A DNA stretch of 64,000 nucleotides from Candidatus Falkowbacteria bacterium S5_I03. Its GTDB lineage: Bacteria > Patescibacteriota > Patescibacteriia > Patescibacteriales > UBA12465. Under the pieces are notes generated by a model, which was not told the DNA's origin, made no database searches, and saw only the letters and a list, made by a program, of their open reading frames with translations. Both the position numbers and the translations under genes were made by a program. Location: NCBI GenBank assembly GCA_019248265.1, contig JAEHGX010000004.1, forward strand, positions 9,495 through 73,494, given 5' to 3'. Below, piece after piece: positions 2,864 to 63,135 of this stretch (its first letter is position 1; every line of letters starts with the position of its first letter).

Positions 2864-5332
2864 TTATAATTTAATTTCTGTGCGCCTAGCTATTTCAGCT
2901 TCCACTAAACGCGCATTCTGACCATATTTTAAGCGCGATAATGATCTAATTTTATCTTTCATCCCCTCACGCTTAACGCCGATTAGCGGCCAAACGGTAT
3001 GCAGAGAAAACGGCCGAGCAGCACTATTGTCAATTAATAATTTAATACAAGCTGTTCCTTTGTCAACATTTATCAAATCGTATTCGTTGAAAACAGGAGC
3101 AAATTCTTTAACTAAAAATTCTGCATCCTCAGAACCAATCTTAAAACTGACCATAGTGCCAACGTTACCAAACACCGCATCCTTAATTTCCGTATTATTA
3201 TTTTTGGATAACTGGCCGATATACTGATGGGCCACAATTAAATTAAGTGCGTATTTTCGCGCCTCGGATAGAATTTGGCAGATTGAATTGGTGGTGAAGT
3301 TTTGAAATTCATCAATATACAGATAAAAATCTTTACGCGCCTCGCTCGGCATATCGGTGCGCGATAAGGCGGCCATGAGAATTTTGCCGACCACAATCAT
3401 TCCCAGCAAATAAGCATTCATCTCGCCAACCGTTCCTTTAGGCAAGTCGATAAGTAATATCTTTTGCTTATCCATCACATCGCGCAAATTAAAGGCGCTG
3501 TGCTGTTGGCCGATAATCGGCCGCATCATATCATTGGAAATAAAAGAAGTCAGTTTGGAAGTAATATAAGGGACAATGTTAGCCAAGGCAGCCTCACCGC
3601 CAGCTTTTTCCGCCTCTTTAACCCAGAAATCAACGACTGTCTTGTTGCGGCAATTTTTAAGTTTTAAGCGGCGAAAATTTTCATCAGCCAAAACTTTAGG
3701 AATTTCCATTAAAGTTGAGCCGGTTTCTGGATCGTCCATAATGAGCAACATCGCGTTTCTCATATATTGCTCAAACATCGGTCCGCCAGTCGCCTTTAAA
3801 TCATAAAGCTTATCAAAGATACCAATCATTTCATTTATTACAAAACTCTTTTGTTCCGGATAACGCGGATCATACTCTAATAAGTTTAGGGCTAACGGCC
3901 GCTCTAAATCAGCCGGTGAAAATATAATAACGTCCTCAGCTCTCTCCGGTGGGATTCTCTCCAAAATATCGGTAATCAAATCACCATGCGGATCAAGTAC
4001 GCACACGCCTTCCCCGTTTTGAATATCTTGAATGGCCATATTGGCCAACAAAACTGATTTACCGACACCGGATTTACCGATAATATAAGTATGGCGTCTA
4101 CGGTCAGCGCGCTTAATTCTAATGTCCTTTTTGATACCACGATAAAGATTAGTGCCCAAAGAAATCCCCTCCTCAGGAACATTGGCCGGCGCGGGCGCCG
4201 ATTTGGCAGTCAACCACAAAATATTTGGTGTTTCGGTGGTACTTAGCGGAAAATGAAAAACACTGGCAAGCTCTTCACTATTTAATAAAAAACTTATATT
4301 TTCTCGAAAATGACGATAGATAAAATCTTTAACAATCCGGTCTTGATTATTTTTGCGAGCGCGGGAAAAAGAATTGCCATAACTAAAATTATTATATTCT
4401 GCAAACGCGCTAGCGATATTTTCTAAATAGAGATTAGCTCTCTCTTTGGTCTTGGCAAAACTCAAAACTCTAATATTAACATCTAAGCCCGCTTTTAAGT
4501 TTTTTTCTTCCATGGTTTTAACCATTTCTTCTTCAACGGCGCTCAACCTTTTCAGCGGCTTCCCCTGAGCGTTCATGCCCGATGGCCCGTCATTTTTAAA
4601 ATTAACATGGAACAGAGCGCGTATTGGATTGCTATATTTAAGTCCCAAGGCAACAGAATTTTTACGGTGAATCATAAAAACCACCTTGCGAACTTTGGCA
4701 TGCCAAGATCTTTTGGCGCTTCGAACTAAATATTGAATCGCTAAATTTTCGCCCTTTTCCAATTTGGACAAAACATTAATCAAAGAATTCATGGGGTCAA
4801 TGTCCATTTTTTGATAAGTCTTGAGCGGGAAAATAAAACTTTTAGTTGTTCTTAAATAAGCAGCCGCCACCGAACCGTTTAGTCCGAAAGAATTGTAATC
4901 TTCAACCTGTTCAATTACCGCCGCCGGATAATGAGCCTGGATTTGTTGCTCCAAATAGCGAACATCGTCTTGCGGGGAGGCGAAATAAAAAGTAATGTGT
5001 TTGGAATCGGCCACTATTTCAAAAGAAATATGATCATCGCGACCAAAAAGCCAGGATTTAAAACTTTTTTGGGCGCTCATGCCGCCAATGGAAGCAAAGA
5101 TTGTTTCCCCCTTGGCAATTTCTTCCTTTAAACTTTGCACCGATTGAGTTTTATCTTCTTCATTTGGTTTTTCTTTCGGCAATCTGACTGAAAAAACATG
5201 ATGTGAAGTATATTTACGCGAAGAAAAAATTAAACGTAAAATATTAAGAATCGCAAATACAAGAACGACCGTTAAAGAAACAGTTAGCAAAATCGGCATA
5301 ACTAAACTAAAACTTGTAACGTTGAAATCCAT
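2864..5332 (-). CDS. membrane-anchored P-loop ATPase, TraD/VirD4/HerA-FtsK-like (DUF87-type)
   Basis: N-terminal TM helix, Walker A YIIGKSGVGKSVLLANM and Walker B FYLYIDEFQNFTT. Size is 822 aa. Confidence 0.6.
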   Translation of the reverse strand: MDFNVTSFSLVMPILLTVSLTVVLVFAILNILRLIFSSRKYTSHHVFSVRLPKEKPNEEDKTQSVQSLKEEIAKGETIFASIGGMSAQKSFKSWLFGRDDHISFEIVADSKHITFYFASPQDDVRYLEQQIQAHYPAAVIEQVEDYNSFGLNGSVAAAYLRTTKSFIFPLKTYQKMDIDPMNSLINVLSKLEKGENLAIQYLVRSAKRSWHAKVRKVVFMIHRKNSVALGLKYSNPIRALFHVNFKNDGPSGMNAQGKPLKRLSAVEEEMVKTMEEKNLKAGLDVNIRVLSFAKTKERANLYLENIASAFAEYNNFSYGNSFSRARKNNQDRIVKDFIYRHFRENISFLLNSEELASVFHFPLSTTETPNILWLTAKSAPAPANVPEEGISLGTNLYRGIKKDIRIKRADRRRHTYIIGKSGVGKSVLLANMAIQDIQNGEGVCVLDPHGDLITDILERIPPERAEDVIIFSPADLERPLALNLLEYDPRYPEQKSFVINEMIGIFDKLYDLKATGGPMFEQYMRNAMLLIMDDPETGSTLMEIPKVLADENFRRLKLKNCRNKTVVDFWVKEAEKAGGEAALANIVPYITSKLTSFISNDMMRPIIGQQHSAFNLRDVMDKQKILLIDLPKGTVGEMNAYLLGMIVVGKILMAALSRTDMPSEARKDFYLYIDEFQNFTTNSICQILSEARKYALNLIVAHQYIGQLSKNNNTEIKDAVFGNVGTMVSFKIGSEDAEFLVKEFAPVFNEYDLINVDKGTACIKLLIDNSAARPFSLHTVWPLIGVKREGMKDKIRSLSRLKYGQNARLVEAEIARRTEIKL

Positions 5333-46747: not shown

Positions 46748-47182
46748 TTATTTTATCTTAGAAGCTAAGGAAATAATTTTAGCCGATAAAGACTTGATTT
46801 CCGAAGCTGTTAATATTTTTCGCGGAATTCCGTGAGCATCAACATCACCAATACGGATATTCGGTATTAAATGATAATGCAGATGTTTGATGCTTTTATC
46901 AGAATCCGGCCCCTCTCTAACTAAAATTGAGAAACTGTCATATTTCAATTTTTTTAATATCTGTGCCCCGATTTTTACCAAAGCGGCAATATCTTTATCT
47001 TCCTGGGCGCTGAGATTAAAAAAAGAAACAACATGTCTTTTAGGAATAACCAGCAAATGATGTGAGTGATAAGGCGCCTTGGAATAAGTTAAATAAGCGC
47101 TTTCATTATCAATAAACATGCGCTTCTTGGCTTTGCAAAATGGGCAGGACTTAATCTTTTTTAAATAATCGTGGTAGAACAT
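46748..47182 (-). CDS. HIT family protein
   Basis: IKHLHYHLIP histidine triad and N-terminal CPFC. Confidence 0.75.
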   Translation of the reverse strand: MFYHDYLKKIKSCPFCKAKKRMFIDNESAYLTYSKAPYHSHHLLVIPKRHVVSFFNLSAQEDKDIAALVKIGAQILKKLKYDSFSILVREGPDSDKSIKHLHYHLIPNIRIGDVDAHGIPRKILTASEIKSLSAKIISLASKIK

Positions 47183-47297: not shown

Positions 47298-47909
47298 TTA
47301 ACAGTTCACATCAAATTCGCCAATCTCAGTCCAACCCCCTATTTCATCAGGGTTCATTTTTTGAAAATCTTCACGGCTGACAATTGTTCCTCGCTTCTTT
47401 TCTGGGTCAGAATAAAATATCTTCCCCAAGTCCTCCTTACAAATTTTCATTTCTCTTAGAAGACGCTTAGTCGAACCAAAGCTGTCTAATTTCATGTCCA
47501 ATAGCTGCCAGTTTTGCAGTGGCGGTTCTTGCGGATTTTGCAAAATTGCCATAACTGCTCCGGCATACAAAATGTCAGCTATTTCTTTTTTCTTTGGAGT
47601 GTCTGGCCCGCCAACAGCTTCATAAATCTTATTCATTAACAAATTAAGATTGAGCTTATCGCAGGGTAAGTTGGCATCTAATAAATCGTTGCCAGCTTTA
47701 AGATCATAGAGGACTAAAGCGCTGTACCGTTCTCTTTCGGGAAACCTCCTAATAAGTTCCAGAGTTTGAACCAAAACTTCGTGTGGGTCGGTTGATTCAA
47801 ATTGAATCAGGGTGCAGCGCTCGCCGAGCCAAATCTTTATTCTGAGCAAGGACTCAAAATCTTCTCCGGTTACTTCGGAGCCTAAAACAAAAATAATTCT
47901 TTTTTCCAT
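47298..47909 (-). CDS. hypothetical protein (203 aa)
   Basis: Last gene of the unit-A operon; no terminator lies between 47910 and 47983. No motif recognised. Confidence 0.5.
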   Translation of the reverse strand: MEKRIIFVLGSEVTGEDFESLLRIKIWLGERCTLIQFESTDPHEVLVQTLELIRRFPERERYSALVLYDLKAGNDLLDANLPCDKLNLNLLMNKIYEAVGGPDTPKKKEIADILYAGAVMAILQNPQEPPLQNWQLLDMKLDSFGSTKRLLREMKICKEDLGKIFYSDPEKKRGTIVSREDFQKMNPDEIGGWTEIGEFDVNC

Positions 47910-47983
47910 GACTAATTGATTTTACTAACGTTTCTTTTGTTTATTCCATACCGATTTTAAATTTTGCCTCAACGCTAAAATCC

Positions 47984-48520
47984 TTAAAACACTGTTCGCA
48001 AAAAATTTGCAATCTTAGCCCAAGTAATTCGCCAACGCTTGGCGTAGACATAAATTTCCGCGTTAACGTTATCGTGGTCGTAATGCCCGCGATAAACAAA
48101 ACCGGAGTTTTGCAAATTTTTAACTGGCTGATTATTCCCGTCTTTAACTAAAGTGCGGATTTTAAACAAACCATTTTGCAGGCAAAATTTAAGGCGATGC
48201 TCAATTAATATCCGATGATATCCGCGCTGGCGAAAATTCGGAAAAACATAAGCATTGGTCAAAACCGCCACCTCAGCTTTAAAATAAAAAGCTTGATTGC
48301 CATCCTGGTCGTAGAAACTAAGACCGCCTAAAGCTGCCAACTGACCATTCTTGATAACGGCAAAAAACTTACTGCCTTTTTTCTGCCACTCGCAACAATC
48401 GTGAATATTGTTCTGATAAAAGAACTCTCGATCATGAGCGGCAAAGAAGGCTAGGGTCCGTCTTAGCTCGCCGAGGCTTAGCTCGGAAATTTCTGAAGCT
48501 CGGACATTAGAGGTGTTCAT
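47984..48520 (-). CDS. GNAT family N-acetyltransferase
   Basis: ..YVFPNFRQRGYHRILIE.. (acetyl-CoA loop). Overlaps the upstream gene by 4 nt. Confidence 0.7.
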   Translation of the reverse strand: MNTSNVRASEISELSLGELRRTLAFFAAHDREFFYQNNIHDCCEWQKKGSKFFAVIKNGQLAALGGLSFYDQDGNQAFYFKAEVAVLTNAYVFPNFRQRGYHRILIEHRLKFCLQNGLFKIRTLVKDGNNQPVKNLQNSGFVYRGHYDHDNVNAEIYVYAKRWRITWAKIANFLRTVF

Positions 48521-49431
48521 TGTTTTCGGAAATTAAAATCCGATTCTAACACCGGCTCGATGGCCATCAAAGTAATGTAGGTTGTTTCTTCGCCATCGAT
48601 TGCGGCCAACATGATGCTCATGGAATTTAGGCCGAGAAAATATTCCCGCCCCTCAAAAGTGACTACCGCCGAACCGCCATACATGCCGATTATTTCTTCA
48701 GACATAATATTGGGGATACGGACAACATACATCCCTGATTTTGATTTAGCATTTTCTTCGGCGCCTTCGTAAGGATAGCGAGCAGAACGCTGAATGAGTT
48801 TTTGATCATGCGGATTAAGATAATAGACCGTCCCTCTAATTGTGTAGCGATAGACTTGTTTATCTCCGCGAAAACAATTAAGCAACTTAATTGTGCAAGG
48901 AGAATCATCCAGCCTGGGATTAACTTTTTCCAGGAGCGGATAAGAAATCGGAGTCTGTTCAAAATTATTAGCAGCAAACATGATTAGGTCTCCCTTAGAA
49001 AAAATTTTAAATTCATTTTGCTTTAAAGCGTCTCCTAAATCTAAATTTTCGCCACGCATGCGTTTAGGCATAACGGCGTAAGCGGAGCTATCAACTGCCA
49101 ACAAAGTTAGGTTGCAATGATTCATCAGATTCCAAATACTATCCTGTCCTTGGGATAAGCTCCTGAGATTAGGAATAGCCGTCAAAGCCTTATTATCTTC
49201 CGGCCAAGTGACCGCAAAAACTAGACTTCCAGGAAAATCCTGAATCATTTCCTCGTTCAAAACTTCCTTAGCGATTGAAGCTTCGGAAAAGTTAGTAATT
49301 CGGTTGATGCTCTCCAGAGAGAATTGGGGCACAATCTTTTCTGTCAAAGAAAACATGAAAATAACTATGGCGATGATTAAGCACACGCCAGTAATCATAG
49401 CTAAAGGACGTAAAGGTTTTTTTGCTTCCAT
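48517..49431 (-). CDS. hypothetical membrane-anchored protein (304 aa)
   Basis: N-terminal TM PLAMITGVCLIIAIVIFMF. First gene behind promoter module A. Confidence 0.55.
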   Translation of the reverse strand: MEAKKPLRPLAMITGVCLIIAIVIFMFSLTEKIVPQFSLESINRITNFSEASIAKEVLNEEMIQDFPGSLVFAVTWPEDNKALTAIPNLRSLSQGQDSIWNLMNHCNLTLLAVDSSAYAVMPKRMRGENLDLGDALKQNEFKIFSKGDLIMFAANNFEQTPISYPLLEKVNPRLDDSPCTIKLLNCFRGDKQVYRYTIRGTVYYLNPHDQKLIQRSARYPYEGAEENAKSKSGMYVVRIPNIMSEEIIGMYGGSAVVTFEGREYFLGLNSMSIMLAAIDGEETTYITLMAIEPVLESDFNFRKQ

Positions 49432-49567: not shown

Positions 49568-50029
49568 ATGCTTAATCAAAAGAATAACAAAAGGCTATCT
49601 GCACTAATAAAAATAAGGTCTGGTAACCAGGCTGATTTCCGTTTTATTTGTGCCTTAAGCAGGCGCAACATGGAAAAATACACTAAGGAAATTTGGGGCA
49701 ACTGGGATGGTTCAAGGTTCAAAGCGAATCTTAATCCAAAGCGGCTAAAATTAGTAATAAAAAACGGCAGACGAGCAGGCTTCTTCGATATAGAGACTAA
49801 AGGAGCAGAATCTTATCTGCATAATATTCAGCTATCGCGCCCTCTACAAGGCAAGGGATTGGGAAAAATGTTAATGTCAAAAATAGAGGCGGCTGAAAAA
49901 AAAGCGGGCGCCAAAAAAATCACAGCCAACGTCTTTAAAAACAACCCCGCTAAAGAATTTTATAAAAAAATCGGCTACAAGATAATAAAACAAAAAGGGG
50001 CCGTCCTAACTATCGGCAAAGATTTATAA
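49568..50029 (+). CDS. GNAT family N-acetyltransferase
   Basis: ..LQGKGLGKMLM.. acetyl-CoA loop; 153 aa. Confidence 0.75.
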   Translation: MLNQKNNKRLSALIKIRSGNQADFRFICALSRRNMEKYTKEIWGNWDGSRFKANLNPKRLKLVIKNGRRAGFFDIETKGAESYLHNIQLSRPLQGKGLGKMLMSKIEAAEKKAGAKKITANVFKNNPAKEFYKKIGYKIIKQKGAVLTIGKDL

Positions 50030-50617
50030 ATTTTTAAAGAAAATGGATTTAGCGGCGTTCACTAGTCCCTTTCTTATTTCAACATCATAAATAGCAAAAA
50101 ATTTAGATTTAATTCCTTGAAAAGATTTTTGATTATGATAGTTTAGCTTGTTAACTGCTACACAAACGGACGAAACCTTAATTCCTAACTTATCAAAAAC
50201 TTTTACGGCTGCCTCGATACTGCCGCCCGTAGAATAAAGACAATCAACAATCGCGACTTTTCTCACTTTAAGATTATCCAAAGAAAAAAATACATCCCGG
50301 CTATAATAACCGGTTTTTTGTTTAAACTTAATAATTTTCTTAAGATTATAGTGAAAAGGTTTTGCGCAGACAAATGGCTTACCAAGCAAAGCGGCAACTT
50401 TATAAGCCAAAAAGGCGCCATCCATTTCAAAAGAAAAAATTAAATCCGCTTCCCCGCCTATCTTTTTAGCCATCTGCTTGGCCAAATAATCTAGCTCCTT
50501 TGGGTTAGTGGGCACTAATCCCTTATAAGGATAAACGAAATATTCGTAAGCGTTATCGGTTTTATAAACCGGCGCACGCTCTAAATTCTTTCTTATTGTT
50601 TCAAAAGTATTAGCCAT
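50024..50617 (-). CDS. phosphoribosyltransferase (type I PRTase fold) family protein
   Basis: PRPP-binding-like loop VAIVDCLYSTGGS. The start is taken at MANTFE (50617), 1 nt after the upstream stop. Confidence 0.65.
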   Translation of the reverse strand: MANTFETIRKNLERAPVYKTDNAYEYFVYPYKGLVPTNPKELDYLAKQMAKKIGGEADLIFSFEMDGAFLAYKVAALLGKPFVCAKPFHYNLKKIIKFKQKTGYYSRDVFFSLDNLKVRKVAIVDCLYSTGGSIEAAVKVFDKLGIKVSSVCVAVNKLNYHNQKSFQGIKSKFFAIYDVEIRKGLVNAAKSIFFKNL

Positions 50618-50618
50618 A

Positions 50619-51401
50619 TTATTTTTTAATATTTTGCTTATAATAATCAACCAGAGCGCCCAAAACTAAAGGCAAGATAATACTAAAAGCGGCCTCTAAT
50701 TTCTGTCGATGATCACGACGAGTCGGAACACCTTTTAAATCGTCTTCACCTTTTTCATGCGCCGGCAAATCTACCGGAATATTAACCGCAGCAACTGGAA
50801 TTTTTCTAAATTGACAGACAGAAAAGATGGCCGCCGTATCCATTTCAATAGTTAACACGCCAAGTTGGGCGAGTTCTCGTAAAAGGGCGGGATTTTCACG
50901 CCAGCGCCCGTCAGTGGTAACTGTAATACCGAATTGAAAAGGGAGATTATTTTTTTTAAAAGAAGTGGCTAAAGCGGCATTCAATCCTGCATCGGAAATA
51001 ATCGGAAAACCGGCCGGCAGATAATGCTTAGATGTTCCTTCATCACTAAAACAAGCGGTACTAATAACCGGATGAAATAATTTTAAATTAGCAGAAAGTC
51101 CGCCGCAAGTTCCAACACGAACAATCGCCTTGGCTCCATAAACCCGCAAACGCTCGGTTATGCAGGCCGACATGCTTGCGCCCCGATCGGCAATACAAGC
51201 AATATCTAAACCGCCGAGGTTGATATGTAAAACCTCATCTTGACTATGATCATAAGAAATACGAAGACTTTTCGGATATAAGCGCTGTAATAAATCAAGC
51301 CAAAAAGGAGTTTCTAAAACCAAACCGATATCTGTTTTCCTTTTTACTTCAATACCATTTTTACGCATAATTTTATTTTTAAAATAAAAGGCGCCAAACA
51401 A
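50619..51401 (-). CDS. nucleoside phosphorylase-fold (PNP_UDP_1 family) protein
   Basis: RVGTCGGLS, IEMDTAA. An alternative start is MRKNG at 51368. Confidence 0.65.
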   Translation of the reverse strand: MFGAFYFKNKIMRKNGIEVKRKTDIGLVLETPFWLDLLQRLYPKSLRISYDHSQDEVLHINLGGLDIACIADRGASMSACITERLRVYGAKAIVRVGTCGGLSANLKLFHPVISTACFSDEGTSKHYLPAGFPIISDAGLNAALATSFKKNNLPFQFGITVTTDGRWRENPALLRELAQLGVLTIEMDTAAIFSVCQFRKIPVAAVNIPVDLPAHEKGEDDLKGVPTRRDHRQKLEAAFSIILPLVLGALVDYYKQNIKK

Positions 51402-51413
51402 ACAGCGCCCTTT

Positions 51414-52400
51414 TTAAGTTATTAATTTAATCGCATTCTGAAAAAAAATTGCATTACGATTATAATCGCTATCAGCCCCAGAGGCTTGCAAGGCGGCTCT
51501 AATCGCCGAGAGAGATTGCAGAAAAACCATGTTTCCTGGCTTTAGTGCCAATTTAGAAAACCTAGAATCAAGCCAGGGCCAAGCAAATCCCGGTAAAAAC
51601 AAGGTTTGTTCTTCGTGTCTGATAAATTCCCCCCTTAAATACCCGAAGGGGGCGTCACTCCCAAATATAATTCTCTTACAGCCAATAATCTTAACTGCCG
51701 CCAAAACCGACTCGGGGTCAGTAACCATGGCGGTATCAAAGAAAACATTGCTAAAGGGTCGGAGTGTTTCCAGCGCAGACGGCAACTGTTCATTAAATAA
51801 GAAAGCGCCGCCCAAATGAGCAATAATAAAATTAATCCATCGGTATTTATTAGCTAAAAATGCCAACTCCGAGGCGTTCTGCCAAACATTCTGCGGCAGA
51901 TGAATAATAAGAAACCGGTTCCCAAAATTAAGCCATTCCCAGGTCTCTTTAGAAAAATGCTTAGAAATTTCATCGTTCCCTCCCTGTGTTCGGATTTTTG
52001 TCTTAATTCCGTTAACATTTCGGAAGGGCTGCCAGTCAACCTGGTTTACCAAAGAAGATGTTAAACAAGGAATAGGATAAATTTCCATCGGCCTTGGTCT
52101 GAGACGATAAAGATTAAAATTATTCTGACTTTCATCAGGAGAAAATGGTAAGCCGAAAGCCACCGCCTGATAAAAAGATGGAACAAAATCAAACTTTTCT
52201 AACACTAATCGATGAGTATTAAGATCAAACCAATTAAATGTCTGCCCCGGATTTTTGGCTGAATGATTAAATATATCCAACCCGTCATTATTAAGATGAA
52301 GATGAAAATGACAATCAATAATACGATGAGGCAACCAATTCTTTAAACCGGCAAACAATTCTAAATCGTTCGCCATCGGCAATAATTTTGATACATCCAT
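51414..52400 (-). CDS. amidohydrolase-fold (TIM-barrel metal-dependent hydrolase) protein
   Basis: IIDCHFHLHL (HxH), ..IIAHLGG.., ..FGSDAPF. Confidence 0.65.
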   Translation of the reverse strand: MDVSKLLPMANDLELFAGLKNWLPHRIIDCHFHLHLNNDGLDIFNHSAKNPGQTFNWFDLNTHRLVLEKFDFVPSFYQAVAFGLPFSPDESQNNFNLYRLRPRPMEIYPIPCLTSSLVNQVDWQPFRNVNGIKTKIRTQGGNDEISKHFSKETWEWLNFGNRFLIIHLPQNVWQNASELAFLANKYRWINFIIAHLGGAFLFNEQLPSALETLRPFSNVFFDTAMVTDPESVLAAVKIIGCKRIIFGSDAPFGYLRGEFIRHEEQTLFLPGFAWPWLDSRFSKLALKPGNMVFLQSLSAIRAALQASGADSDYNRNAIFFQNAIKLIT

Positions 52401-52434
52401 GATTATTTTGTTTTTAAAGAAATTACTATTTAAA

Positions 52435-53487
52435 TTACTTACTATACTTCCAACAATAAGGATCTTCAGCTAACAAATCATTATTAATAAGCAAGGCTCT
52501 AGCTCGACAACCGCCGCAGATAAAACGATCGCAACAAGAACCGCAGTGGCCGGAGTATTCCCGGCTCAAGAGCTGTTTTACTCCTTTAATTTTTTCTCGG
52601 TCATTCCAAATATCAACTAATGACTGCTGATAAAAATCACCTAAAACTATATCCTGGAGAAAAGTACAAATTCCAATTTTACCGTCACATCTAACATGAA
52701 TCATGTCCTGGCCAGCTGTACAGCCACTAATCACTTTACCAGAATAAACATCGCCGAACTCTTTTAATTTAGCCATAATCTTAGGATCAGCCAAATGATA
52801 AAGAGGGTCCTGGCAATTTATTACCATCTTAATTTTTCTTTTTTCCCTCTGAACGCTCAGCTCTTCTAAGAATTTGCGATATTCTTCCGGTGTAATAACA
52901 AAAATTGGATTGGCGCCATTGGCGCGCCCGGTAAAAATAGCCGCTCTGGCTAGGAAAGTATCTACTCCAAGTTCCTCTAACATGTCTAAGGTTGAGGATA
53001 AATCATTCATATTAAGCCGAGTGACCGTGAATTCCACATGGACTTTTATACCCAGCTTCTTTAAGATTTTTATAGAATTAATTGCTTTCTGCAAGGCGCC
53101 ATCTAAATTTCTGATTTTATCGCTTATTTCCGGCTTGGAGCCATCCAGACCAACGCCGAAAGAATAGAGGCCGGCATCTTTAAGTTTCTTAGCCAAGTCC
53201 TCAGTAAGTAATAAGGAATTACTTTGAATTCTAACCTTAATCCCTTGTTTAGTTGCTTCCTTAACAATCTCTACAATATCAGGTCGCAAAAGAGGCTCAC
53301 CGCCAGTAAGGGCGAGAGTCGGACAGCCAAGCTCTTTCAATTCTCGAATGAGCCTAACCATGTCCTTCCCTTTTATTAAATTATTCTCTAAAGTCTGAGG
53401 CGAAGCGGCTGCACGACAATGGATACAACACAAATTACATCTTTGAGTAAGTTCCCAAAGAGCGTAGTGCAAATTATTATTTGCCAT
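52435..53487 (-). CDS. radical SAM enzyme with a C-terminal SPASM-type auxiliary-cluster domain
   Basis: WELTQRCNLCCIHC (CX3CX2C), GGEPLL, and C-terminal GCTAG..CDGKIGIC.. and CGSCCDRFICGGCRA. Confidence 0.85.
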   Translation of the reverse strand: MANNNLHYALWELTQRCNLCCIHCRAAASPQTLENNLIKGKDMVRLIRELKELGCPTLALTGGEPLLRPDIVEIVKEATKQGIKVRIQSNSLLLTEDLAKKLKDAGLYSFGVGLDGSKPEISDKIRNLDGALQKAINSIKILKKLGIKVHVEFTVTRLNMNDLSSTLDMLEELGVDTFLARAAIFTGRANGANPIFVITPEEYRKFLEELSVQREKRKIKMVINCQDPLYHLADPKIMAKLKEFGDVYSGKVISGCTAGQDMIHVRCDGKIGICTFLQDIVLGDFYQQSLVDIWNDREKIKGVKQLLSREYSGHCGSCCDRFICGGCRARALLINNDLLAEDPYCWKYSK

Positions 53488-53503
53488 ATTAAATTATACA
53501 AAA

Positions 53504-53531
53504 ATGACTTATTAATTTCTTAATAAGTCAT
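53504..53531 (-). terminator. intercistronic hairpin plus U-run between the peptide gene and the rSAM gene (probably a leaky terminator)
   Basis: Minus strand: ATGACTTATTAA-gaaa-TTAATAAGTCAT (12-bp perfect stem) followed by TTTTGT. Confidence 0.55.
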
Positions 53532-53537
53532 CGCTAT

Positions 53538-53651
53538 TTAGTCAAACAGACAGGAGCATTCTCTAACAACAATAGTGGAGGTGTCTTTATCAGACTCAGT
53601 TGTTGTGCCCAGCCATTCTTGCTGAACAGTTGTTGCTTGAACTTCTTGCAT
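53538..53651 (-). CDS. candidate RiPP-type precursor peptide (37 aa)
   Basis: Below the ORF-track cut-off. ATG at 53651, TAA at 53540-53538: MQEVQATTVQQEWLGTTTESDKDTSTIVVRECSCLFD. Own promoter upstream, rSAM/SPASM gene 50 nt downstream. Confidence 0.55.
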   Translation of the reverse strand: MQEVQATTVQQEWLGTTTESDKDTSTIVVRECSCLFD

Positions 53652-53676
53652 ATATTTTTTATTAAATTATAATTTT

Positions 53677-53704
53677 ATTTTAATACTTGCAATATTTTTG
53701 TCAA
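53677..53704 (-). promoter_or_regulatory. sigma70-type promoter for the peptide-rSAM operon
   Basis: Minus strand: TTGACA (53704-53699), 16-nt spacer, TAAAAT (53682-53677). Confidence 0.55.
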
Positions 53705-53705
53705 G

Positions 53706-53734
53706 TTGACAGAAACATTAAATAATTATAAAAT
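53706..53734 (+). promoter_or_regulatory. sigma70-type promoter for the PheS-like gene
   Basis: TTGACA (53706-53711), 17-nt spacer, TAAAAT (53729-53734). The two -35 boxes form the palindrome TGTCAAgTTGACA. Confidence 0.55.
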
Positions 53735-53780
53735 AATTTGAATATTTAAATTTGGACATTAACAATAAAAAACCATAATC

Positions 53781-54890
53781 ATGCAAGAGGTAATCAAAAA
53801 AAGCTTGGAGCTGAGAGACTTATCAGATCCTGCTCAAGGAAAACACGCGATCAACCTAATGATTGATCTTATCTACCAGAAGTTGGAAGAAATTCCCGAT
53901 TGTCCTAAGCCGGAAATAAGGCGTTCCAGCCCCATAACAACGGTGGCTGATAACTTTGACCGGCTCTACTTCCCGCCAGACAATTTAAGCCGTTCTAAGA
54001 CTTATACCAGATATCTGGACGAGAAAACACTTCTGCGAACTCACACCACTGCGCAAATTCCAGAAATTTTGGAAGAATTAAGCTTATCACGGCCGGATGA
54101 TTTCTTGGTTATGTGCCCAGGAATTTGTTTCCGACGCGATGTCATTGACCGAAAACATGTCGGCGAGCCGCACCAAATGGATATTTGGCGCATAAAAAAA
54201 GGGCTTCCCCGTATAACCAGAGAAACCTTGTTGACATTCGTCCAATCGGTAGTAGAAGCAATAAAACCTGGAGCGAAATTCCGCGCCAACGAAGTTGAGC
54301 ACCCTTACACCGATCGAGGATTAGAAATCGAAATCCTCATCAACGGCGACTGGCTGGAAATAATGGAATGCGGCGAAATTAAAAGCCGCCTACTCTCTGA
54401 TTCCGGATTAAATCCGGAAGAATATTCAGGCCTGGCAATGGGCTTGGGCTTAGACAGGCTGGTAATGATTATCAAACGGATAGACGATATCAGATTACTA
54501 AGAGCCTCTAATCCTAAAATTAAGGCTCAGATGGAAGACTTATTAGTCTATCGCCCAGTTTCAAAATTCCCGCCGATTAAACGCGACATTTCAATCTCTG
54601 TAGACGAAAATCAAACCGAAGAAGATGTCTGCGAATCAGCCAGAGAAACCCTGCAAAACCGGATAGAGGCTTTGGAAGAATTACAAATAATTTCTACAAC
54701 TGCCTACACCGAGCTTCCGCCGCAAGCGATTGAAAGATTAAAAATCTCTCCCGGACAAAAAAATCTCCTGTTGAGATTAACTTTCCGCTCGCACGAAAAA
54801 ACGCTTTCCCAAGAAGAAGCTAATGAAATGCGGGATGCAATCTATCGCGCCCTGGATCAAACCGAAGGCGGCGGATATATTAAAAAATAA
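53781..54890 (+). CDS. PheS-like class II aminoacyl-tRNA synthetase catalytic core fused to an FDX-ACB-like C-terminal domain
   Basis: LRTHTTAQIPE, motif-2-like ICFRRDVIDRKHVGEPHQMDIW and motif-3-like GLAMGLGLDRLVMI. C-terminal SKFPPIKRDISISV...LTFRSHEKTLSQEEAN resembles the ferredoxin-fold anticodon-binding domain. Confidence 0.65.
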   Translation: MQEVIKKSLELRDLSDPAQGKHAINLMIDLIYQKLEEIPDCPKPEIRRSSPITTVADNFDRLYFPPDNLSRSKTYTRYLDEKTLLRTHTTAQIPEILEELSLSRPDDFLVMCPGICFRRDVIDRKHVGEPHQMDIWRIKKGLPRITRETLLTFVQSVVEAIKPGAKFRANEVEHPYTDRGLEIEILINGDWLEIMECGEIKSRLLSDSGLNPEEYSGLAMGLGLDRLVMIIKRIDDIRLLRASNPKIKAQMEDLLVYRPVSKFPPIKRDISISVDENQTEEDVCESARETLQNRIEALEELQIISTTAYTELPPQAIERLKISPGQKNLLLRLTFRSHEKTLSQEEANEMRDAIYRALDQTEGGGYIKK

Positions 54891-55061: not shown

Positions 55062-55808
55062 TCAGATGATATGCATCATTTGATAAATGGTGCCCTCGAC
55101 GACAATCAAGCCCCGGGCTTGCAAGTAGAGTACAACAGGAACGGTATTAACAACAATGTTATCGCCCGGGAAATCCACACAAATGAATATTTTTCCGGTT
55201 TCATTTATGACTAAACAGCGATCAAGAATTTCTTTGCCATTCTCCTTAAAATACACCTGAATACATTCACCCAAATTTTCAAAACGCCCAAATGTCAATC
55301 CGAGCAGATGGCAAATAAATGCTAAATCTTCCTCATTGATTTCATCAACCTTGATAACTCTCTTGTCCGCAGTTTCCGTTTCCGCCGCTTCTGCCGATTC
55401 TTTATTAAGACCAAGAGACAAAAAGATGCCCACCATTTCCTCAACAGTGTTATCGCTGCCCCAGCTCTTTTTATAAAAACCGTCGATGTGTTCCGGTCGG
55501 GGATCATACATGGAGAACACATAAACTTTAGCTGCGGGGTTAATCTTCTTAATTTCTTCCGCCAGCTTAGAACCATCCTTTTCCTGATCGGAAAATTTTA
55601 CATTACGCTCATCATGGAACTGATCGCTAGTGATAACCACCAGCTCGCAATCTTTCGGAACCTCATTTAGAGTATTCTCGAAATCTCGCTGATAAGAGAT
55701 GACGTCATTTAATTCCGGAAAAACGGTCCGCAGTTTCTCGCGAATAAGCTTCAACGCCTCGGGGTTAGATTGAACAATAATAATTTTTCGCATTGTTAAC
55801 TCCTCCAA
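55062..55808 (-). CDS. hypothetical protein with a degenerate receiver (CheY-like)-looking N-terminal half
   Basis: KIIIVQSNPEALKLIREKL.. has a flavodoxin-like beta-alpha pattern but lacks the acidic pocket (QS instead of DD). Second gene of unit B. Confidence 0.45.
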   Translation of the reverse strand: MEELTMRKIIIVQSNPEALKLIREKLRTVFPELNDVISYQRDFENTLNEVPKDCELVVITSDQFHDERNVKFSDQEKDGSKLAEEIKKINPAAKVYVFSMYDPRPEHIDGFYKKSWGSDNTVEEMVGIFLSLGLNKESAEAAETETADKRVIKVDEINEEDLAFICHLLGLTFGRFENLGECIQVYFKENGKEILDRCLVINETGKIFICVDFPGDNIVVNTVPVVLYLQARGLIVVEGTIYQMMHII

Positions 55809-55811
55809 ATT

Positions 55812-56294
55812 TTAAGGTAAATCAAAAATCTTTTCTTCATCAGCCAGAGGGCCGGTTCTGGTCCAAGTGTTATTATAACGAATTAAAAGTGACTTATTGT
55901 CATCAAGTAACTTGAGATAACGGATTGTAACCGCATTAAACTTATAAGAAGCGACGCGACGGTAATCTTTCAAGATAATTAATTCGGTACAACTCAAACC
56001 AGATTGGCCGATAATAATAATTTGCATATCCGGCTTAAGTTTGCCAAAAAATATTTTGGTTTTAACTAAACCGCCGCCATATGAATACGAATCATAAAGC
56101 CAATTATAAACCAGGGTTTCCGGATGTAAATAAATAACCGTGGCTTTCTTGGTTATATCGTCAGCAAAAACAATCGGCGTCGGAACCGCGCGGGCATCAA
56201 TAAAAGGAATGATTTTCCCTTCCGGCTCGAAGTCAATGCGCTCGCAACTATTAAAAATAGCGGCCAGCAAAAGCAATAAAATAAATTTTTTCAT
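55812..56294 (-). CDS. putative lipoprotein (160 aa)
   Basis: MKKFILLLLLAAIFNSCE (lipobox-like). First gene behind promoter module B. Confidence 0.6.
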   Translation of the reverse strand: MKKFILLLLLAAIFNSCERIDFEPEGKIIPFIDARAVPTPIVFADDITKKATVIYLHPETLVYNWLYDSYSYGGGLVKTKIFFGKLKPDMQIIIIGQSGLSCTELIILKDYRRVASYKFNAVTIRYLKLLDDNKSLLIRYNNTWTRTGPLADEEKIFDLP

Positions 56295-62742: not shown

Positions 62743-63135
62743 TTAATAAGCAATACTAGGCCTTTTATTTGTTTCCTGCTTGAAAGCGTATCTAATCCCC
62801 TTGCCCCTTAACGGCTCGTCAGAAAATCTGGCAATTACATGAAGATGGACATGATTTACATTCTGTCCGGCGTCATCACCAATATTCCAACCTATATTAT
62901 ACCCGGAAGGATTATACTTATCTAAAATCTCTTTAACTTCTCTAAGAAGATTTTTCATAGACAGCCATTCTTCATCACTAAGCTCAAACGGCGTTAAAAC
63001 ATGTCTATAAGTTATTATCATTCCGGCGTGCTTTATAACAGGATCGATACTTTCGACAAAATAACAAAGATCATTTTTTGCTAAAATTTCCCCTTTAAGT
63101 GTATTATTTTCTAAACAAAAATTGCAATTTTCCAT
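62743..63135 (-). CDS. HIT family protein
   Basis: NVNHVHLHVIARF histidine triad. Confidence 0.8.
   Translation of the reverse strand: MENCNFCLENNTLKGEILAKNDLCYFVESIDPVIKHAGMIITYRHVLTPFELSDEEWLSMKNLLREVKEILDKYNPSGYNIGWNIGDDAGQNVNHVHLHVIARFSDEPLRGKGIRYAFKQETNKRPSIAY

Follow-up and report, generated by a model that had tools for sequence, protein, structure and literature searches.

Human mitochondrial phenylalanyl-tRNA synthetase (PheRS; mtPheRS, FARS2; PDB 3CMQ in the closed and 3TUP in the tRNA-bound form) is a monomer in which a PheS-type catalytic core is joined directly to a ferredoxin-fold anticodon-binding (FDX-ACB) domain. The class IIc fold has acquired new amino-acid specificity in PylRS and SepRS, and EpmA/PoxA transfers to a protein acceptor. 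Paralogs of aminoacyl-tRNA synthetases (aaRSs) also occur in natural-product gene clusters, either as resistance copies, such as the mupirocin IleRS MupM and the borrelidin ThrRS, or as biosynthetic enzymes, such as the SerRS VlmL of valanimycin. Human mtPheRS reads G34 of tRNA-Phe by Asp364, Phe366 (the counterpart of Thermus Tyr-beta731), Ser375 and Arg414, the D364G mutation abolishes aminoacylation, and the G34-reading residues are described as conserved in the anticodon-binding domains of bacterial PheRS (PMC7540514). In the crocagin system, with its precursor CgnA, the proteins CgnB and CgnE found a family that binds precursors of ribosomally made peptides with post-translational modifications (RiPPs); they bind leaders that carry a positive charge and offer the peptide to a partner enzyme, homologs in single copy have been noted beside predicted precursors in Gammaproteobacteria, and the paper mentions no aaRS-like enzyme (PMC10070186). 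We describe here srmL, a gene for a PheRS-like protein in a 64-kb stretch of contig JAEHGX010000004.1 of Candidatus Falkowbacteria bacterium S5_I03 (the window, that is, the whole 64,000 nucleotides analysed). Its product has the architecture of mtPheRS, is very probably an accessory paralog that coexists with the alpha/beta PheRS and not the housekeeping enzyme, and has what appears to be a rebuilt anticodon site, and the gene is likely to be a functional member of the peptide cluster beside it.

The gene and the two domains of its product are located as follows.

53781..54890, plus strand: srmL, ATG start, 369 aa; class II catalytic core plus FDX-ACB domain (NF051887, Pfam, AlphaFold2/Foldseek)
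53916..54527, plus strand: class II (PheS-type) catalytic domain, aa 46-249 (PF01409, tRNA-synt_2d, E 2e-33)
54561..54860, plus strand: FDX-ACB-like C-terminal domain, aa 261-360 (PF03147, 48.4 bits against a cutoff of 31.1)

Translation of this open reading frame (ORF) contained every motif quoted in the first-pass annotation of the window, and Pfam confirmed what had been proposed there, a PheS-type core and an FDX-ACB domain in a single chain lacking the N-terminal coiled coil. The Pfam search found no Phe_tRNA-synt_N coiled coil (PF02912) in SrmL, and the N-terminus of the AlphaFold2 model consists of two short helices only. That the family had already been catalogued was missed at the first pass. 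The window protein matched the NCBIfam equivalog NF051887, 'PheS-related mystery ligase SrmL', with 449.5 bits against a cutoff of 300 and over its full length (residues 11-360 on model positions 1-348 of 349), and it is almost certainly a member of this family. Homologs from Pseudomonas, Scytonema, a Micromonosporaceae metagenome-assembled genome and a distant Patescibacteria contig (L088; L numbers denote the loci compared) scored 398-471 bits against the same model, and the architecture and the invariant residues are shared by Pseudomonas, cyanobacterial, actinobacterial and Patescibacteria members. Both domains, and similar lengths (~370 aa), recur in the top 120 homologs. NCBIfam assigns the family no function, and the peptide-cluster context does not figure in the model name; we take SrmL to be, most likely, short for 'pheS-related mystery ligase'. 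A literature search turned up no publication dealing with SrmL or with bacterial paralogs of the mitochondrial PheRS type, and the NCBIfam search found no further 'Srm' system genes among the neighbours.

Human mtPheRS was the nearest solved protein by sequence, with both domains aligned (E 2e-26), although identity is only ~24-25%. The AlphaFold2 model of SrmL (built on 50 homologs; pLDDT 94.4, pTM 0.90) resembled the closed form of this enzyme: 3CMQ was the top PDB fold match over the full length (TMq 0.80, E 6e-31), with the core and the FDX-ACB domain joined at the same junction. The mitochondrial-type architecture proposed at the first pass is thus borne out by both alignment and fold. 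Bacterial PheS alpha chains aligned to the catalytic domain of the model only; SrmL shares with them the class IIc fold (root mean square deviation ~2.0 A to the P. aeruginosa and E. coli cores), motifs 2 and 3 and the LRTHT strand, and differs from bacterial PheS (TIGR00468), the alpha subunit of an (alpha-beta)2 enzyme, in having no coiled coil, in carrying its own FDX-ACB domain in place of domain B8 of PheT, and in coexisting with genuine PheS/PheT. Compared with mtPheRS, SrmL has HPYT for FPFT, ECG for GCG and PHQMD for FHQLE in the core, and S, T and N for D364, F366 and S375 in the anticodon hairpin, into which a helix of 12-16 aa is inserted. Profile scores do not establish a specific sisterhood of SrmL and mitochondrial PheRS, whose shared fusion may have arisen once or twice. 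The SrmL FDX-ACB profile ties weakly to the human domain (25 bits), and the catalytic-core profile, which scored 100 bits with the human mitochondrial core, 108 with S. haemolyticus PheS and 94.5 with P. aeruginosa PheS, fails to separate FARS2 from bacterial PheS. Similarity to PylRS and SepRS was only weak (PylS_Cterm 14 bits, sepS 11 bits), and no dedicated tRNA gene was found in the 64-kb window or linked to srmL in 41 loci.

We computed conservation of the catalytic site over 183 SrmL sequences of distant phyla. Motif 2 of the window protein reads FRRDVIDRKHVGEPHQMD, the pocket strand EHPYTDRG and motif 3 GLAMGLGLDRL. At a threshold of >=95%, the conserved positions were R118, R119, D120, D123, H126, E129, P130, H131, Q132 and D134 of motif 2, G217, L218, A219, G221, G223, L224, D225 and R226 of motif 3, and the family-specific pocket residues H174, Y176, T177, E196, C197 and G198. 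The ATP-binding arginines of class II motifs 2 and 3 (R118/R119 and R226) were invariant. Because the catalytic motifs are invariant in these homologs, SrmL is probably a catalytically active enzyme. The residues that hold the alpha-amino group in PheRS are retained (His/Gln88, Thr/Ser90, Gln132, and Asp134 for Glu), and from what is known of PheRS structures the substrate would therefore probably be a free alpha-amino acid. H174, Y176 and T177 sit on the strand that reads F-P-F-T in PheS, and E196, C197 and G198 replace G-C/A-G. HPYT in place of FPFT was initially taken as proof of non-Phe specificity, a claim that we withdrew since canonical PheS of Patescibacteria also lack FPF: the Phe-pocket strand F-P-F-[TV]-E-P-[SG] of PheS, H-P-Y-T in SrmL, is YYPEVEPG in 119 of 120 of them. 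The amino-acid specificity of SrmL is therefore not callable from sequence, as the Phe-pocket motif is not universal in functional PheS.

The canonical PheS of Patescibacteria has a variant active site in its own right. Among the 120 closest sequences (P0241-P0360; see also L076:5569-6603), the YYPEVEPG that stands for FPFTEPS is accompanied by FHHYQG for FHQ.EG in 83 and by LRTQTS for LRTHTS in 107. Three substrate-contacting positions thus deviate from the textbook enzyme, yet the protein passes the pheS equivalog cutoff.

For the anticodon-reading site, residues were mapped through the SrmL-mtPheRS alignment, and the chain numbering of 3CMQ agrees with the published one (hinge Ser322-Lys323; PMC7540514). 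Human D364, F366 and S375 align to S305, T307 and N328 of SrmL, with an alignment posterior that is only moderate at these positions. The anticodon hairpin of the window protein is remodelled, with S305-T306-T307, a helix insertion at 311-325, Q326 and N328. The inserted helix (~311-325, with invariant A316 and R319) is absent from mtPheRS, and Q326 and N328 are invariant in the SrmL family. Across the family the G34 site reads S-E-T-x-Y (Patescibacteria and cyanobacteria) or G-R-W (Pseudomonas); Asp occurs in none, and the stacking aromatic is Thr in the subfamily of the window protein. By eye, the canonical PheT encoded at L076 retains D-x-Y ('VDVY') near its C-terminus. Because the G34-reading residues are lost and the domain has invariant residues of its own, the C-terminal domain of SrmL appears to be conserved to bind something, but not to read G34 in the manner of PheRS.

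SrmL fell below the cutoffs of both PheRS equivalogs, with 148.8 bits against 258.35 for pheS_mito (TIGR00469) and 114.8 against 237.45 for bacterial pheS (TIGR00468). Canonical pheS and pheT were looked for on the contigs of relatives, and both accompany an SrmL 67% identical to that of the window: on contig L076, a pheS of canonical type (Phe_tRNA-synt_N and core; 246 bits with TIGR00468, cutoff 237) and a pheT lie 2 kb downstream of srmL. At the Patescibacteria loci L077/L078 and L082, pheT lies six genes away from srmL. Several canonical PheS of Patescibacteria also stem from contigs that equal SrmL contigs exactly in length. SrmL also occurs in ~55 Pseudomonas species and in heterocystous cyanobacteria. 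Pseudomonas and cyanobacteria possess PheST, and a structure of P. aeruginosa PheS is present in the PDB. As a side observation, srmL lies 2-7 kb from pheS and/or pheT in three Patescibacteria contigs (L076:2441-8557, L077:8001-17134 and L082:256-9392). These represent two distinct arrangements, L077 and L082 having four radical SAM (rSAM) genes and an epimerase gene in between, and by a rough estimate such proximity is commoner than expected for a genome of ~1000 genes.

The first-pass annotation had also placed srmL next to a peptide operon, and a conserved 37-aa ORF indeed lies directly upstream of an rSAM/SPASM gene. With srmL, the cluster comprises seven genes in 5.3 kb (49568-54890).

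53652..53780, no strand: divergent intergenic region, 129 bp, with putative back-to-back sigma70-like promoters around the palindrome TTGTCAAGTTGACA
53538..53651, minus strand: 37-aa precursor-like peptide MQEVQATTVQQEWLGTTTESDKDTSTIVVRECSCLFD, conserved in all rSAM-orthologous loci and an annotated gene on public contigs
53498..53537, minus strand: attenuator-like hairpin of 13 perfect bp, then a U-run, located after the stop of the peptide gene and ahead of the rSAM start
52435..53487, minus strand: rSAM/SPASM enzyme, 350 aa (PF04055 and PF13186)
51414..52400, minus strand: Amidohydro_2-family metal hydrolase/decarboxylase, 328 aa (PF04909, E 2e-7)
50619..51401, minus strand: PNP_UDP_1-family nucleoside phosphorylase/nucleosidase (PNP; PF01048, E 4e-30), kept in L073, L074 and L088
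50024..50650, minus strand: type I phosphoribosyltransferase (PRT), 208 aa (PF00156; adenine/hypoxanthine PRT models under cutoff), kept in L073, L074 and L088
49568..50029, plus strand: GNAT acetyltransferase, 153 aa (PF13508/PF00583), convergent

In at least 14 loci the 37-aa peptide has TVQxEWxGxT near its N-terminus and invariant Cys(-4), Phe(-2) and Asp/Asn(-1) at its C-terminus; it ends C-x-F-D in the window and C-x-F-[DN] across loci and is, judging by this pattern, clearly under selection. The rSAM protein stayed under all NCBIfam cutoffs, the nearest models being AhbD and TIGR04053, and its closest matches in the PDB were SkfB and PqqE, both peptide maturases, and BlsE, a nucleoside enzyme; it is the probable peptide maturase. 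The locus is RiPP-like in that a short conserved precursor gene with conserved termini stands beside a maturase gene at at least 14 loci, and in that srmL is co-inherited with the precursor and the maturase beyond simple vertical synteny. In the divergent intergenic region the best promoter-like sites (minus strand, 53704->53677; plus strand, 53706->53734), each with 11 of 12 consensus matches, would face the peptide operon and srmL, respectively. Four loci at 73-93% protein identity share the promoter core and both -10 boxes without any change.

Synteny was searched from both sides, starting from srmL loci and from loci of window-rSAM orthologs (>450 bits). The rSAM orthologs always lay behind a peptide gene and usually ahead of a GNAT gene, and the peptide-rSAM pair was found beside SrmL in at least four gene orders, at SrmL identities of 45-93%. 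In the first layout, that of the window, L073/L083/L084, L001 (a Candidatus Falkowbacteria contig, 75% identity) and L074/75, srmL and the peptide gene diverge, with outer flanks that differ. In the second (L007/L085), srmL is convergent with rSAM-peptide, and SrmL identity is only 45%. The third (L088) has peptide, rSAM, GNAT and amidohydrolase genes running one way and srmL, PRT and PNP the opposite way, so that all seven genes of the window are present, reshuffled, between unrelated flanks. In the fourth (L091/L105), a peptide gene, an N-terminally truncated rSAM gene and a GNAT gene are followed by a convergent srmL. Peptide, rSAM and GNAT genes are contiguous in L086-L091 and L105. A different peptide cluster is convergent with srmL at L104:7159-13113; it has a 35-aa ORF ending SWQFSSCGD, an rSAM/SPASM gene (398 aa), a second rSAM gene, an APH-type kinase gene and a carbamoyltransferase gene, and its rSAM proteins are distant relatives of that of the window. 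No peptide genes were found at L006, L076, L102, L103 or the cyanobacterial and actinobacterial srmL loci. The link between srmL and peptide genes is recurrent, not universal.

The truncated rSAM proteins of L091:695-1474 and L105:5618-6397 lack the N-terminal ~90 aa including CxxxCxxC, and the peptide, GNAT and SrmL are intact; by its sequence, this cluster may be decaying or re-purposed.

A second and independent pairing was found in Pseudomonas, where srmL is divergent from a gene for a conserved ~310-aa protein across an apparent 400-bp gap. In 26 of 30 loci the gap encodes, on the strand of the partner gene, an ORF of 33-39 aa that is rich in Lys at its N-terminus and has NFGWAPLAW as a conserved core, carrying …KEKLNRITSGPENFGWAPLAWAHTEE (L010-L072, e.g. 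L022:8578-11113). The partner protein belongs to PF26231, 'Crocagin biosynthetic protein CgnE/B domain', and matched PDB 6zsv (E 3e-12) and CgnE, 6zsu (E 2e-9). These islands thus resemble the crocagin system in having a CgnB/E-family protein together with a small ORF whose leader is positively charged. GC content is 47-50% in the three-gene unit and ~60% in its flanks, the flanks differ between species and the chromosomal sites vary. SrmL is the sole candidate partner enzyme on the island, which seems, from its gene content, to be a candidate minimal RiPP-like system, apparently undescribed. Unlike the Pseudomonas island, the window and the Patescibacteria loci have no CgnB/E-like protein, and the partner of the window peptide is the rSAM/SPASM enzyme. 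Two unrelated peptide systems therefore have the same topology, with srmL diverging from a precursor gene and a gene for a peptide-handling protein. PADLOC gave no match to known anti-phage defence for SrmL or the Pseudomonas partner, and the rSAM protein showed only generic viperin-like similarity.

The suggestion, made at the first pass, that an aaRS paralog was recruited to the peptide pathway is therefore favoured in one respect, the recurrent rearranged synteny and the Pseudomonas pairing, and weakened in another, the many solo members; it also leaves tailoring and self-resistance undistinguished. Our best reading, a tentative one, is that SrmL is a tailoring ligase for peptide pathways. 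One promoter region would give two divergent transcripts, one of peptide, hairpin, rSAM, Amidohydro_2, PNP and PRT and the other of srmL, with GNAT closing the cluster. SrmL would bind ATP and a free alpha-amino acid and form an aminoacyl-adenylate, as PheRS does. The remodelled FDX-ACB domain would then dock an acceptor other than a tRNA-Phe read through G34, for which the precursor peptide, a peptide-presenting complex or a different RNA are candidates, and transfer of the aminoacyl group would serve to tailor or build the product derived from the peptide. The narrower proposal, that SrmL is an aaRS-derived ATP-dependent ligase whose acceptor was swapped from tRNA-Phe to the precursor peptide (directly or as presented by a partner such as the rSAM complex or a CgnB/E-type binding protein) or to a non-Phe tRNA charged for the tailoring of a peptide, is rather doubtful as it stands.

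Several observations weigh against a tailoring ligase. The acceptor is one that we infer outright, the alignment of the anticodon hairpin to mtPheRS has only moderate posterior probability, and the change of FPF to HPY in the pocket is not readable as non-Phe specificity. The window cluster contains no transporter or protease. In the sequence available for the peptide-rSAM-GNAT loci L089, L090 and L092 there is no SrmL, the upstream side of L089 and L090 ending at the contig end. Many srmL genes are solo, those of cyanobacteria, L006, L008, L102 and L103 having no conserved neighbour or small ORF. A tailoring enzyme without a substrate gene nearby is odd, and a self-sufficient enzyme would fit these loci better.

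Solo genes were also found on mobile elements: on an Azotobacter plasmid among IS630/IS3 and VapC/Phd genes (L106, 5983-7095), on the Glutamicibacter plasmid pGnB68 beside a Cmx/CmrA chloramphenicol exporter gene (L107, 5974-7092), as a partial gene on a C. diphtheriae plasmid, and in the 635-kb uncultured phage record LR745206 among phage hypotheticals (L108, 9995-11074), with no tRNA gene within 10 kb of the phage copy. The Azotobacter, Glutamicibacter and phage copies are annotated 'hypothetical protein' or left unannotated. A conserved small ORF beside cyanobacterial and other solo srmL genes was looked for and judged unconvincing, the sole recurrent 'ORF' overlapping the 5' end of srmL on the opposite strand. 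At L089:1964-2914 and L090:2086-3024, the gene after peptide-rSAM-GNAT encodes an RlmN/Cfr-like radical SAM enzyme of 312-316 aa, a family that normally methylates rRNA or tRNA.

The mobile genes bear on a first alternative, namely that SrmL is a fully functional monomeric PheRS which, through an altered pocket, is insensitive to a toxin directed at PheRS, a 'PheRS type 2' comparable to the mupirocin-insensitive IleRS2. The window copy would then protect the producer from what the neighbouring peptide cluster makes, and elsewhere the gene would spread horizontally on its own, conferring resistance or fitness. That SrmL has a full aaRS architecture and keeps every catalytic residue of class II would suit such a role, as would the solo copies on plasmids (with insertion sequences, toxin-antitoxin genes and the cmx exporter) and on a jumbo phage, which have the profile of a self-sufficient mobile gene, and the low-GC Pseudomonas module at varying chromosomal sites. 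Divergent transcription from a precursor operon is typical of immunity genes, and most aaRS paralogs in biosynthetic clusters are resistance copies. HPY would be compatible with Phe, since functional Patescibacteria PheS also lack FPF, and srmL lies 2-7 kb from pheS/pheT in L076, L077/78 and L082. We nevertheless consider a resistance copy unlikely. The Asp that reads G34 is missing from every SrmL, its change in D364G inactivates human mtPheRS, and the stacking aromatic is Thr in the subfamily of the window. At least three unrelated types of peptide cluster (AhbD-like rSAM, the L104 rSAM and CgnB/E-type) would all need to make PheRS inhibitors, and neither the window cluster nor the three-gene island of Pseudomonas has an exporter. 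No lineage was seen in which SrmL replaces PheST, and SrmL scores under both PheRS equivalog cutoffs. The natural-product paralogs resemble SrmL in being aaRS-like genes in or beside a biosynthetic cluster and additional to the housekeeping enzyme; they differ in being close to that enzyme and keeping its tRNA recognition, whereas SrmL is a deep, distinct family with a remodelled site and solo members.

A second alternative is that SrmL has a general role, for example in charging or modifying some RNA, tRNA or otherwise, or in aminoacylation of a protein in the manner of EpmA/PoxA, and that its adjacency to peptide and rSAM genes reflects island structure or shared vertical synteny and not a shared pathway. 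Most sampled lineages have no conserved srmL neighbour, rSAM genes are abundant in Patescibacteria and those adjacent to srmL in L077, L079 and L082 are distant from that of the window (<91 bits), and the family-invariant FDX-ACB residues Q326, N328 and R319 suggest one universal ligand. It is difficult to reconcile such uncoupling with the same seven genes in two orders between unrelated flanks (window and L088), with a minimal trio of peptide, rSAM and SrmL in four layouts at 45-93% SrmL identity, with the independent Pseudomonas pairing with a peptide and a RiPP-binding protein, or with a divergent promoter core that is shared and conserved; nor was a dedicated tRNA found nearby, or a riboswitch or T-box. 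We regard this alternative, too, as improbable.

The last alternative, put forward at the first pass, that SrmL is the organism's only, minimal PheRS, charging tRNA-Phe for all translation as a monomer after loss of pheS and pheT, would accord with the mitochondrial enzyme of equal architecture being a complete PheRS, with the generally reduced genomes of Patescibacteria and with neither pheS nor pheT being found among the large ORFs of the 64-kb window, but we reject it as highly improbable, given that 64 kb is a small fraction of the genome, that close and more distant Patescibacteria relatives have canonical pheS/pheT alongside srmL, that Pseudomonas and cyanobacteria have the family as an additional gene, that its scores are far under the PheRS cutoffs and that the G34-recognition residues are missing.

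The SrmL family is large and phylogenetically scattered, occurring in Patescibacteria, Pseudomonas, cyanobacteria, actinobacteria, plasmids and a jumbo phage, and its catalytic site is under strong purifying selection. What is new here compared to the current annotation is that SrmL is recurrently wired to small-peptide systems and that its acceptor-binding site is rebuilt. The analysis offers testable propositions: that SrmL is not a housekeeping PheRS, that its anticodon site was rebuilt in a family-specific manner, and that it is tied, in two unrelated lineages, to small-peptide genes and to the proteins by which the peptides are matured or recognised. Should SrmL be a peptide-directed ligase or one of new specificity, it would represent new RiPP enzymology, a handle for genome mining and a rare view of secondary metabolism in the ultra-small Patescibacteria. 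With a swapped acceptor, it would add a fourth functional specificity to Phe, Pyl and Sep in aaRS subclass IIc and serve as a marker gene, so far unrecognised, for several types of RiPP-like cluster in Patescibacteria and Pseudomonas. Were it a drug-insensitive PheRS, it would instead count as a mobile resistance determinant of relevance to the PheRS inhibitors being developed. In either case the outcome has a bearing on how the mitochondrial PheRS architecture originated.

Further features of the window cluster were noted. The hairpin between the peptide and rSAM genes folds with dG -14.8 kcal/mol (z -5.99), and none of 200 shuffled sequences was as stable. An Rfam search found no T-box or riboswitch upstream of srmL; it gave a sub-threshold match to the Streptococcus sRNA SSRC10 at 53498..53604 on the minus strand (30.9 bits against a gathering threshold of 56, E 0.012), which lies over the hairpin and the 3' portion of the peptide gene and is most likely driven by the hairpin. 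The amidohydrolase gene is kept in the cluster of L073/L083/L084, L001 and L074, with a distant counterpart in L088. Since the PNP proteins of relatives have 249 aa, comparison suggests that the true PNP start is an internal ATG (MRKNG...). In other lineages the GNAT gene is translationally coupled directly behind the rSAM gene. We set the cluster bounds at ~49568 and 54890 because the flanking proteins (248, 160, 304 and 203 aa; 55062..56294 and 47298..49431, both minus strand), which have no Pfam or NCBIfam matches, have no counterparts in any related locus.

Aminoacyl-adenylates and nucleotide phosphoramidates are substrates of HIT hydrolases. Two small proteins in the window look HIT-like from their HxHxHxx sequence motifs, HLHYHLI and HVHLHVI (46748..47182 and 62743..63135, both minus strand). 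One of the genes lies 2.4 kb outside the cluster on its GNAT side; L080 likewise has a HIT gene, ~5 kb from srmL. The window as a whole has ~39% GC and is bacterial chromosome with dnaX, pyrG, metG and ctp. An 822-aa ORF (2864..5332, minus strand) adjoins dnaX and shows weak similarity to the TraD coupling protein (51 bits, far under the cutoff); it may encode a mobile-element remnant or a type IV secretion-like ATPase.

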